Assembly (NCBI GenBank): GCA_001774075.1
Contig: MEYR01000030.1
Location: 1 to 35,267, forward strand
Length of the DNA: 35,267 bases
Direction of reading: 5' to 3'
DNA from: Candidatus Azambacteria bacterium RIFCSPLOWO2_01_FULL_44_84
GTDB lineage: Bacteria > Patescibacteriota > Minisyncoccia > UBA10092
Below, piece by piece: positions 29,785 through 31,156 of this stretch. The notes beneath the pieces are model-generated. The model did not search any database, was not told the origin of the DNA, and worked only from the letters and a program-made list of their open reading frames with translations. Both the position numbers and the translations under genes were made by a program. How positions within the stretch are numbered: the stretch's first letter is position 1; every line of letters begins with the position of its first letter.

Positions 29785-29921
29785 AAGCAGGTACGTTCCA
29801 TAAACAAATGACGGCCGCCTGAATAGGGACCGTCAAATTTAACTTTTTGACTATAAAATCGCTTAGCATAACTTTTATTATAGAATGACTAAAATTCTAT
29901 TGCAAACAGAATTGCGAGATG

Positions 29922-29939
29922 TCATCTCCCATGACACCT
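29922..29939 (-). repeat. SecA-tail site 1 (AGG TGT CAT GGG AGA TGA = RCHGR*)
   Basis: Core TGTCATGG inside the inverted repeat gagatgtcat-ctccc-atgacacctc (29916-29940). Confidence 0.7.
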
Positions 29940-30013
29940 CTGCTACTTATTGACTAGCCCTTACGGATTTGCTATATTGTATTGATATAAGTTCTGTTCA
30001 TAGGAGATATCGA

Positions 30014-30295
30014 ATGTCACAACCATTGCTATCGTGGGATTCTGCTGACGATACAGTTCATCCACAACTAGTCTGGCGCAACAAGCTTGATAACAGGTAT
30101 CTTATTGAAGTACACCGTACAGATGGTTATAGCGGTAAACTCTATATATTTGATCATGACAAGAATGATCAGGAAATTTTTTCTCTGGATGTCGGTCTCT
30201 CCTATGGAGCAACGTTCGGACCCGATGTGGCTGATGTCCAAGAGTGGCAGGAAAAAGCACTAGACTTCATTGACAATACCTATAACAAACAATAA
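30014..30295 (+). CDS. Hypothetical protein (93 aa)
   Basis: AGGAG 7 nt before ATG 30014. Lies between two TGTCATGG sites, opposite to its neighbours. Confidence 0.72.
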   Translation: MSQPLLSWDSADDTVHPQLVWRNKLDNRYLIEVHRTDGYSGKLYIFDHDKNDQEIFSLDVGLSYGATFGPDVADVQEWQEKALDFIDNTYNKQ

Positions 30296-30338
30296 TAACC
30301 TCTCTCGTCCAGCTGGCAAACGCCGGCTTTTTCTTTTC

Positions 30339-30407
30339 CTACGCCCCATGACATCTTTTATATTTTTTGCCGCTGCCGCACCAGCAAGGGTCGTTTCTGC
30401 CTATTTC
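30339..30407 (-). pseudogene. Orphan SEC-C motif, a secA 3'-end fragment (SecA-tail site 2)
   Basis: Manual translation [22 protein letters not shown]. No start codon; an in-frame TAG lies immediately upstream (30408-30410). Confidence 0.88.
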
Positions 30408-30730
30408 CTAATCCTCGCGGCAAACGCAAAAGAAAGAAAATATTTGTCTAGGTCTTTAAGAGATGTTTTGTATGCCTTGTCGCCGAAAACTGCATCACAG
30501 ATTAATTCTCGAACTCTAACAAGTTCCTTAAGTCTGGTATGCCAGCGAGAGTCTTGGATGGTAAAATCCAAAAGCTCAAGAGCCCTCGCAATTGCGGCCT
30601 CATATAGTTTTTTATCAATGTTGTGCCAATGGACGGCGCGGCTTATTTCACTGCCTACATTCGCCATCTGCTCGGTTAATGAAAGCTCCTGCCATCTTCC
30701 GGAAGCCAGATTTTTATGTTGAATGGTCAT
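30401..30730 (-). CDS. Hypothetical helical protein, coupled to the DUF5674 gene
   Basis: GRWQELSLTEQMANVGSEISRA...RALELLD; starts 1 nt after the upstream stop. Confidence 0.75.
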   Translation of the reverse strand: MTIQHKNLASGRWQELSLTEQMANVGSEISRAVHWHNIDKKLYEAAIARALELLDFTIQDSRWHTRLKELVRVRELICDAVFGDKAYKTSLKDLDKYFLSFAFAARIRK

Positions 30731-30731
30731 T

Positions 30732-31076
30732 TTAGAGAATTAATTTACTTACAATTTCTCTTATTTTCTTTTGCAGCTCTATACTCTCAACGCCTCTGGA
30801 TTTATTTCCTTGCGAAGGTCTTAAATTAATCATTGAATTAAATTCAACCCACTCGTTTCCAGATTTTTCAGGGTAGAAATTGATGCCCCATAAATTCTTC
30901 TGCTGCGATCCCTGCTCCAAAAGCAGAGCTTCTTCGTCGGCGTGAAGCTCGCCGCCAATGGCCATGATTTCTTTTTCAACATCAACAACGGCTTTAACTA
31001 AATCACCAAATTGATTTTTGGCAATTTCTTTGAGTTCGTTTACGGAGATTGCGTCTTTGATGATCTTGATAGACAT
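30732..31076 (-). CDS. DUF5674 family protein
   Basis: KAVVDV...IGGELHADEE..LL..GS.Q.NLWGIN and SMINLRPSQGN motifs. Confidence 0.8.
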   Translation of the reverse strand: MSIKIIKDAISVNELKEIAKNQFGDLVKAVVDVEKEIMAIGGELHADEEALLLEQGSQQKNLWGINFYPEKSGNEWVEFNSMINLRPSQGNKSRGVESIELQKKIREIVSKLIL

Positions 31077-31096
31077 AAGTTAAATTTAACATATTT

Positions 31097-31156
31097 TCAA
31101 ATCCCATGACACTTCTGATGGCTTCTCTAAGAACCATGACATCTTTTATATTTCTT
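31097..31156 (-). repeat. SecA-tail sites 3 and 4 (KCHGI* at 31097-31114; KKYKRCHGS* at 31127-31156)
   Basis: Two TGTCATGG cores 30 bp apart. 31134-31153 is identical over 20 bp to 30346-30365. Confidence 0.8.

Follow-up and report, generated by a model that had tools for sequence, protein, structure and literature searches.

The e14 element and phage 21 integrate in icd of Escherichia coli, where the 3′ end of a protein-coding gene is rebuilt by the incoming DNA. Genomic islands accrete in tandem at tRNA and tmRNA genes, and integrative mobile elements exploiting Xer (IMEX) and pdif modules make use of the host Xer recombinase. To our knowledge, the temperate phages of the Patescibacteria (candidate phyla radiation, CPR) and their integration sites are hardly charted, and no genetic tools exist for these bacteria. 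Here, we describe an array of four short repeats, R1 to R4, in a stretch of 35,267 nucleotides (nt) from the small groundwater organism Candidatus Azambacteria bacterium RIFCSPLOWO2_01_FULL_44_84; the whole stretch is called the window. The repeats derive from the 3′ end (the tail) of secA, cluster at one locus, and follow a pattern found across the class. We give a probability of roughly 0.6 to the reading that the four sites are attachment-site scars of temperate phages or islands targeting the secA tail, which would make the window the site of a relic array.

A search of the full-text literature, with subscription journals outside its scope, gave no report of integration at secA or of comparable arrays in CPR bacteria. 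The part of one preprint that was available (10.1101/2024.03.08.584096) does not mention secA.

Results

Four copies of the secA tail in the window

The window is the complete contig C30 of a 597-kb genome that was assembled into 41 contigs and is 92.4% complete (genomes, contigs, loci, and sequencing runs carry handles beginning with G, C, L, and X). The core TGTCATGG occurs four times in the window, at 29929, 30346, 31104, and 31134, always on the minus strand and within 1.2 kb. Only 0.44 copies are expected in the window, and four copies were reached in 0 of 100 shuffles. The whole genome has nine matches compared to four for a reversed control, and the five copies outside the array have no lysine-rich or SEC-C context. 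Each of the four sites is a degenerate copy, 20–68 nt long, of the secA 3′ end, and the identical 20-mer AAATATAAAAGATGTCATGG is common to two of them. A DNA profile was made from 47 tails of other genomes, with the window left out, and was run over all 41 contigs with nhmmer. The best four matches in the genome were R3, R1, R4, and R2 (E-values in Table 1), with only noise after them, so that tail-profile matches are found at this locus only and the motif is not scattered genome-wide.

R3 passes the threshold for the zinc-binding SEC-C motif (PF02810, 19 positions) with 47.7 bits (cut-off 20.4), covering profile positions 1–18 at 30345–30398 on the minus strand. Its frame opens right where the 109-aa gene before it stops, and the two are read in different frames. 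R1 gave a partial PF02810 match of 12.2 bits (profile positions 11–18, 31133–31156). It is out of frame with the 344-aa open reading frame (ORF) yet provides the last five codons and the stop of that ORF, and it resembles the ‘W-type’ site found next to integrases, cAGTGGAwGAAATATAAAArRTGTCATGG. R2 follows 30 nt past R1 in the same frame, and the leader of the DUF5674 gene comes next; this leader is homologous to the one behind the single site of G001:C21. The core of R4 forms the left arm of a 10-5-10 inverted repeat, GAGGTGTCAT-GGGAG-ATGACATCTC (29916–29940).

An original prediction, made from the letters of the window alone, had described four minus-strand sites that read [R/K]-C-H-G-X-stop, with core spacings of 417, 758, and 30 bp. 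Both the sites and the spacings were borne out, and R3 together with the secA tails of relatives upheld the claim that the repeats are secA 3′ ends. The prediction had also placed one gene, a two-gene pair, and an empty unit between the sites. The pair (DUF5674 and 109-aa genes) and the empty 30-nt unit are present as described, and the single gene, encoding 108 aa, is present but on the opposite strand.

Tails in the family and across the class

In a family of 12 genomes, a SEC-C match above the cut-off lies at the end of a long open frame in 11 of 11 relatives. The order secA, zero to four variable small genes, nuclease gene, 116-aa gene, (Mpg), and secD was found on one contig in six of the 11 (G004, G005, G006, G007, G009, and G011). 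A contig end stops secA or the downstream block in G002, G008, and G010, and secA is elsewhere in G001 and G003. The tail 20-mer AARTWYAARARRTGYCAYGG, with one mismatch allowed, has 23 matches in the 12 genomes compared to one for the reversed control. About half of these matches are not secA, and the extra copies are pseudo-tails in frames of 9–60 codons. Second tails occur 82 and 170 nt past the secA stop in G007 and G008, respectively, and two tails 1 kb apart surround two small genes in G004:C17. In G001, a single tail sits between a class II tRNA synthetase gene and the next conserved gene. The same place in G002 has three recognizable tail copies, two with intact cores and one decayed, and a coreless remnant, spread across four small opposite-strand ORFs. 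The closeness of many extra copies to contig ends suggests that strains vary there.

The survey was extended to 301 genomes of the class, and 20 regions from nine genomes were inspected. The tail 20-mer is present in 157 of the 301 genomes (reversed control, one match), and about 39 genomes, by hand count of the table, have at least two copies. Same-strand tail pairs 175–910 nt apart were seen in G282, G132, G081, and G181. In the inspected regions, tandem tails lie behind secA and bracket one or two genes, which encode NUDIX hydrolases, a GNAT acetyltransferase, an ASCH protein, a deoxyribosyltransferase-like protein, and DUF5674 pairs. The DUF5674 pair lies directly behind secA in G011 and G081 and behind the integrase region in L153 and L182. 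G081:C18 has the same order as the window: secA, DUF5674 pair, degenerate full tail, opposite-strand ORF, and decayed tail. The opposite-strand ORF of G081 was considered as a counterpart of the 108-aa gene and rejected, as the two are not homologous. In relatives, gene-content breakpoints fall at the repeats, and displaced old tails bracket variable genes, both in keeping with the original prediction.

Some extra copies are real genes ending in SEC-C (G181 and G145), so not all extra copies are scars. These genes, at L095 6304–6798 in G181 and L099 10401–10931 in G145, encode non-SecA proteins of 164 and 176 aa with a complete in-frame SEC-C end and sit in or near tail arrays. They may have captured a tail.

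An insertion into a secA tail

G165 (contig C38) and G088 belong to one genus and have near-identical flanks, with few mismatches in about 700 aligned nt. Relative to G088, at least 142 nt, a 10-N gap among them, have been inserted into the secA tail of G165. The 21-nt stretch TGGATCTGGTAAAAAATATAA is present at both ends of the insertion. The secA end KKCHGA-stop of G088 has become KRCHGQ-stop in G165, with the SEC-C end kept, and the former secA end and the NUDIX gene behind it are displaced downstream. Insertions that supply new last codons and a stop, as had been proposed for the window, therefore occur.

Several units between tails are very small. A hairpin unit of 50–90 nt lies between two cores, in unrelated flanks, at seven places: twice in G120, three times in G067, and once each in G088 and G139. 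Each such unit is made up of a palindrome, one arm of which is the core, and then a small hairpin. The palindromic scar was found at 10 sites, R4 among them, in seven of the 301 class genomes and in seven families; the reversed control gave 0. The scar has the form aGAGRTGTCA, a 5–7-nt spacer, and TGACATCTCGCAATCC (29916–29940; L103, L104, L105, L114, and L121). In relatives, a variable hairpin and a second core follow it, with three tandem units in G067. Near 6566 of L083 (G005:C2), head-to-head tail cores form the perfect 22-nt palindrome AAGAAATGCCATGGCATTTCTT, and a comparable inverted pair (10-6-10) is present in L109 (G165:C6).

A conserved module of about 70 nt (‘type B’) terminates many units in different families, and such conserved non-coding tail variants, ‘type B’ and palindromic, are common to several families. 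A conserved module of about 110–170 nt was also observed to close many units (L040 in G002:C9, L096, L100, L104, L105, and L124). Its elements are a promoter serving a small ORF on the opposite strand, the box CCGCATGACATTTTCTATAA, and then AAAACGGCTTAAAATAAAGAAAATCCCTGCGGTTGGTTATTGAAAAAG and the core, and some copies have a G+C-rich hairpin insert.

An integrase linked to secA-tail mimics

G119 encodes a 339-aa tyrosine recombinase (PF00589, E 6.8e-24) with a tail mimic about 280 nt downstream. This integrase is 21% identical to the Xer of the window’s genome. Integrases of the G119 type score 48.3 bits with the integron-integrase model TIGR02249 (cut-off 265) and 22.7 bits with NF011946 (cut-off 435). 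In all nine genomic loci, which are G119 and eight further loci with integrases 67–95% identical, a tail mimic lies 180–630 nt downstream of the integrase gene on the same strand. The spacer of about 330 nt between integrase and site is conserved in eight aligned loci, and the conservation ends at ...GAAATATAA/RARRTGYCAYGG (slash, end of conservation). Past the site, each of eight loci has different genes, with integrases 71–100% identical. The end of the spacer conservation and the G165 case place the exchange at or just 5′ of the TGTCATGG core (...AAATATAA/RARR...), and so the exchange point seems, from these alignments, not to be inside TGTCATGG. The integrase family has 383 clusters at E ≤ 1e-30, from sources named Parcubacteria, Patescibacteria, Moranbacteria, and similar.

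Two further features were noted at these loci. The first gene past the integrase-adjacent site of G119 (L107, 3824–4480) encodes a 218-aa relative of IS200-like Y1 transposases (PF01797, 26.4 bits). Directly upstream of the integrase gene is a conserved non-coding stretch of about 330 nt (L151:4640–5000; also L107, L152, and L153) with several GNRA-capped hairpins and a folding z of −6.46 compared to shuffles. It is single-copy in G119 and had 0 Rfam matches even at E ≤ 1.

The same integrase is found in viral records. A single integrase query gave 0 matches against viral contigs, and a profile from alignment A1 was needed to find relatives, 33–73% identical, in 24 IMG/VR records of 19–53 kb. 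A site of the form K-K-[YF]-K-K-C-[HC]-G lies 325–994 nt past the integrase gene on the same strand in 12 of the 24 records, and in four the downstream sequence is too short to judge; the viral integrase is often within 600 nt of the record end. An endolysin beside the integrase and a PHROG integrase match back the viral nature of the records. G302 is a complete phage of 34.8 kb (terminal repeats, CheckV 100%) and has exactly one site, adjoining its integrase. In G303 (53 kb), two sites lie on the same strand, separated by 49.8 kb. One of them closes a secA-like frame with a complete motif at the record end; the other lies 626 nt past the integrase and is followed by glyoxalase-like (a label read from the sequence by eye), M16-like, and nuclease-like genes. 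The flanked integrated form and the one-copy free form are thus represented by one example each, G303 and G302.

The missing secA and the integrity of the assembly

The original prediction expected secA beside the array. The gene upstream is instead the 344-aa gene, which has no SecA domains and only a weak, sub-threshold glycosyl-hydrolase-32-like Pfam match. SecA domains (PF07517, TIGR00963) were found nowhere in the 92.4%-complete assembly, and tblastn with the SecA of a relative gave a single match in the genome, the 22-residue tail of R3, at 86% identity. At 92.4% completeness, the assembly has probably missed the DNA that carries secA. The proposed interval from secA to secD therefore holds for the family but not for the window. 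In G001, of the nearest genus, the 116-aa gene follows the M16 gene after 38 nt, and neither a repeat nor secA separates the two. This genome therefore has about 3.6 kb of extra DNA, ending in the four-site array, and the array is detached from its anchor.

Tyrosine recombinases in the assembly are limited to one of Xer type on contig C31, and serine recombinases were not found. The original prediction had rightly noted that no recombinase gene is visible in the window, and the tyrosine recombinase that it proposed to look for elsewhere turned out, in this genome, to be of Xer type only.

It is very unlikely that the array is an artefact in which a chimeric contig was joined through the repeated tail and R3 is really the end of secA. 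The absence of secA from the assembly would fit such a join, and so would several features of public data. Logan unitigs (k = 31) break within 30342–30369, so the R3 repeat is spanned by no single unitig. A 1576-nt contig of run X14 matches 29508–30371, the 3′ part of R3 and downstream DNA, and then continues for 712 nt unlike the window. In runs X10 and X16, a secA-like contig has only 31 nt in common with the 5′ part of R3 (30376–30406). Against a chimera, the identical stretch of R1 and R3 is 20 nt, which is too short to mislead assemblers with read-length k-mers, and contigs from public runs of other studies cover each part of the array with 0 differences (30348–31307 and 29799–30369). The same order is also present in other genomes, for example G081:C18. 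The variant contigs may come from related strains or from the organism’s real secA. Past 30376–30406, the secA-like contig of X10 and X16 reads ...CWCGKVDENGKPV, with an extended-loop SEC-C as in the SecA of G001. A joint that goes back 41 (30380 to 30340) was seen in three runs, at a depth similar to that of the genome.

Genes and signals around the array

The coordinates of the repeats and of the neighboring features are given in Table 1. Read along the minus strand, the region starts with a Cas4-like PD-(D/E)XK nuclease gene cut by the contig end, an M16 peptidase paralogue, a cyclophilin gene, and a 105-aa ORF (plus strand). The 344-aa gene, R1, R2, the DUF5674 gene, the 109-aa gene, R3, the 108-aa gene (plus strand), and R4 come next, followed by genes for the 116-aa protein, Mpg glycosylase, a 121-aa protein, SecD, and SecF.

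Table 1. Positions in the window of the four repeats and of the genes and signals around them
Feature	Position	Strand	Remarks
344-aa gene	31146..32180	−	upstream of the array, overlaps R1; not SecA
R1	31127..31160	−	3′ half of the secA tail, reads RCHGS-TAG (31127-31144); nhmmer E 6.2e-7
R2	31097..31116	−	short remnant ..HQKCHGI-TGA (KCHGI-TGA 31097-31114); nhmmer E 0.39
DUF5674 gene, 114 aa	30732..31076	−	first of the bracketed pair; Pfam PF18924 E 3.8e-35
109-aa gene	30401..30730	−	always paired with DUF5674; stop within the first bases of R3
R3	30339..30407	−	complete orphan secA tail, 22-codon frame, RCHGA-TAG at 30339-30356; nhmmer E 3.7e-13
G+C-rich hairpin	30311..30328	both	A/T-run flanks, terminator-like on both strands, just past R3
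108-aa gene	29969..30295	+	opposite strand; relatives in phage-like strings of small ORFs
R4	29916..29961	−	decayed tail ..NP(stop)GLVNK(stop)QRCHGR-TGA (RCHGR-TGA 29922-29939); nhmmer E 0.3
Small hairpin AATTCT..AGAATT	29893-29913	−	between R4 and the next genes
Promoter-like site TTGCAA-17-TATAAT	29905-29877	−	between R4 and the next genes
116-aa gene	29434..29784	−	conserved family synteny restarts: 116-aa gene, Mpg, then secD

Homologues of the 109-aa gene are present in 10 of the 12 family genomes, and it has no family assignment in Pfam, PHROGs, or PADLOC. PHROGs and PADLOC gave 0 matches with the cassette proteins. One of the phage-like ORF strings with a 108-aa relative again adjoins a tail, and a search of metagenome contigs for the same species with the 108-aa protein found distant relatives only. 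The promoter-like site of the 108-aa gene is at 29950–29978, and its −35 box overlaps R4. Hairpins behind tails in relatives differ from the one just past R3, and in relatives a second core follows the hairpin that corresponds to 29893–29913.

The nuclease at 34797–35267 is only weakly Cas4-like. In relatives, the genes for the nuclease and the 116-aa protein overlap and form a conserved pair that follows closely on the variable region of the family (L077, L085, L086, L088, L089, and L091); in this genome, the two genes are 5 kb apart. The cyclophilin gene (32615–33364) has a counterpart at E ≤ 1e-20 in 0 of 11 family relatives. The M16 peptidase gene (33380–34717) is a second paralogue, 33–37% identical to those of G001, G003, G004, and G005.

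Discussion

The array as a probable relic of integration

An insertion that rewrote the end of secA while keeping SEC-C, and an integrase linked to a mimic of that end in genomes and in viral records, point to integration at the secA tail as the origin of the window repeats. Temperate phages and related islands of this class of Patescibacteria would carry a tyrosine integrase and, a few hundred bases downstream of it, an attP site mimicking the secA tail. The partner of this attP would be the genuine secA tail (attB), and the exchange would fall at TGYCAYGG or just 5′ of it, within ...AAATATAA/RARR TGYCAYGG. SEC-C would stay complete at the end of secA, with last codons and a stop supplied by the element, and the displaced former end would become a downstream pseudo-tail. 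Repeated insertion, element decay, and rearrangement would then leave same-strand pseudo-tails around leftover or hitch-hiking small genes. Smaller elements using the same site probably integrate as well. The window would hold such a relic array, between the 344-aa gene and the conserved block of the 116-aa gene, Mpg, and secD. We infer that the tail-associated integrase catalyses the exchange, that each window repeat represents a separate event, and in what manner the array lost its link to secA. The serial insertion that the original prediction saw at the secA end, with restoration of that end, was accordingly right in kind and wrong in place, and the name it was given was too strong.

Several observations weigh against this reading. 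An integrase of the tail-associated family is absent from the window and from the assembly, and no excised circle or empty site was seen for the organism in contigs of public runs (contigs, not reads). The integrase is rare, being present in four of 151 class genomes, and the genomes that carry it hold no more repeats than others. The repeat-rich genomes G088, G165, G067, G120, and G004 carry only a tyrosine recombinase of Xer type, and serine recombinases were not found in G088, a single-contig genome, or in G165. Eight of the 24 viral records have no site past the integrase. The G165 insert contains an assembly gap, and its 142 nt are a minimum. In G303, the terminal frame spans only 39 codons, and ‘secA’ is named there from the tail. 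The units between tails measure 0.03–1 kb, far below phage size, so decay or small satellites must be assumed. In many cases, pseudo-tails lie 20–80 nt past other housekeeping genes, namely those for class II tRNA synthetases (AspRS-like), GyrB, PolX, aldolase, Mur ligase, and NTP-transferase. Plain integration at secA leaves these copies unexplained without secondary sites or rearrangements. The housekeeping-gene copies, the very small units, the shared ‘type B’ and palindromic variants, and the repeat-rich genomes with Xer only are all left unexplained, and they keep alive the readings in which units move one by one or relatives’ DNA is patched in by homology.

Alternative explanations

A wider proposal is that the secA-tail sites, beyond being passive scars of phages, serve a class-wide exchange of cassettes in the Patescibacteria. 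One- and two-gene units and the hairpin unit of 50–90 nt, all with a tail-like site at their end, would be moved in trans by the phage-borne integrase between the secA tail and secondary copies past other essential genes. The conserved and strongly folded non-coding DNA of about 330 nt that precedes the integrase gene could be a functional RNA of the recombination module. This proposal is tentative, and we are doubtful of it.

Another possible explanation, and an unlikely one, is an active integron-like cassette platform, the strong form of the original prediction, in which the small units are themselves mobile and are inserted and excised singly, at the secA tail and at further copies of it, by a recombinase acting in trans. 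The core-bounded units of 0.03–1 kb would fit it, as would the hairpin unit of 50–90 nt in at least seven places with different flanks and the ‘type B’ module that ends many units across families. Different genes past the integrase-adjacent site in each of eight loci and a cargo typical of integrons (NUDIX, GNAT, ASCH, and DUF5674) also speak for it. However, the variable genes past the site are equally expected from host flank or phage cargo, and the integrase is not of integron type and is found in viral records, one of them a complete phage. Consistent attC-like paired inverted repeats were not seen, with only some of the sites palindromic. Many units have opposite-strand orientation and their own promoters, and no excised circles were seen in the contigs.

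It is improbable that no dedicated system is involved and that the AT-rich SEC-C stretch acts as portable homology, with RecA-dependent or illegitimate patching of DNA from relatives duplicating the tails. The repeat-rich genomes with Xer only, one of them a single contig, favor this explanation. The duplications are also fairly long, at least 21 nt in G165 compared to G088 and the whole tail of at least 54 nt in the window and in G081, and the wobble positions of pseudo-tails vary as those of coding tails do. Patching leaves unexplained the tail mimic at a fixed distance from the integrase, in the nine genomic and 12 of the 24 viral loci, and the complete phage with one site. It also does not account for junctions at the same few bases in unrelated flanks or for the conserved non-coding tail variants common to different families.

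The repeats could instead be kept for expression, supplying a promoter (TGACA..17-19 nt..TATAAA), a stop, and a ribosome-binding site, or could be like repetitive extragenic palindromic (REP) elements moved by Y1 (IS200-like) transposases; this is highly improbable. Cassette ORFs begin 10–25 nt past the core, several pseudo-tails read as a −35/−10 pair by inspection, and R4 overlaps the −35 box of the 108-aa gene. Y1_Tnp genes are present in G004, G088, G165, and G067, with one to three in each, and one lies right past the integrase-adjacent site in G119. On the other hand, a promoter scan flagged none of R1, R2, and R3, this assembly has no Y1_Tnp gene, and the Y1_Tnp genes of those four genomes do not adjoin arrays. 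There are only 2–10 copies per genome, unlike REP families, and the insertion that rebuilt secA is left unaccounted for.

Other candidates were rejected or judged unlikely. A programmed frameshift or fusion of the 109-aa gene to SEC-C does not hold, as the homologues in nine relatives end at the same place (107–153 codons), their loci have no SEC-C end on that frame, and a stop 22 codons upstream shuts off the tail frame. Xer/dif mimicry was judged unlikely, for want of a conserved second arm and of a common dif-like copy with these arms in five genomes checked. Serine recombinases were set aside as the agent, with none in this genome, G088, or G165, and so were Y1 transposases, with none in this genome. 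A known RNA family was rejected on Rfam, which had no match in 28300–32400 of the window or in the integrase loci.

Integration at the secA tail, if correct, has several uses. A conserved 20-nt target, an integrase family, and an attP site together offer a simple means of locating prophages, with their borders and remains, across thousands of fragmented genomes. It would explain the frequent assembly breaks beside secA in these organisms, and it offers a candidate integrase and att pair for genetics in Patescibacteria. The last zinc-finger residues of SecA in these lineages would have been rewritten repeatedly by mobile DNA. For the window, the orphan SEC-C motif would be explained, and about 1.3 kb would be marked as a relic of mobile DNA and not as core genome.

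Comparison with known systems

A match to REP elements and REP-associated tyrosine transposases is not apparent, with no PF01797 match in the assembly and all four tail copies at one locus. Like IMEX and pdif modules, the array has small modules bounded by short sites, and a recombinase of Xer type is the only tyrosine recombinase. Unlike those modules, whose sites have two inverted Xer-binding arms around a spacer of 6–8 nt and resemble the dif of the genome, the tails have no conserved second arm, and the palindromic form is limited to seven of 301 genomes. In five genomes searched, the inverted pair ATGTCA-N5-9-TGACAT was found only at palindromic scars and at two other sites, with no common dif-like copy.

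The likeness to integrons lies in same-strand units of one or two genes bounded by a short conserved core, in a cargo of small enzymes, and in a recombinase gene with a primary site behind it, past which close relatives differ in sequence. The recombinase of the relatives, however, scores 48 bits compared to a cut-off of 265 and sits in phage-sized records of 19–53 kb, and this genome has none. Many units have their own promoters or lie on the opposite strand. In addition, R4 and its relatives alone form a palindrome, and inspection of 66 sites found no consistent inverted pair in other tails. The term ‘integron-like’ in the original prediction was an overreach; the apparent exchange point, at or just 5′ of TGTCATGG and not inside it, also speaks against the term.

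The islands that accrete at tRNA and tmRNA genes resemble the array in the serial use of a regenerated site, which leaves direct-orientation partial copies of the target with cargo between them. Here, the site is a protein-coding end, the last residues of an essential protein are rewritten with each event, and the units are much smaller than typical islands.

The phages and islands that integrate at gene 3′ ends share two features with the loci described here. A tyrosine integrase lies beside an att site with a copy of the last codons of the target, and the gene stays whole with element-derived codons while a pseudo-3′-end is displaced (G303; G165 compared to G088). The differences are that the window is without integrase and without secA, that the scars stand in tandem around 0.03–1-kb units and also behind housekeeping genes, and that the target is the zinc-finger end (SEC-C) of secA throughout one class of Patescibacteria. 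The integrase biology is of a conventional kind, with a new target and in a new host group, and the data do not show an integron.

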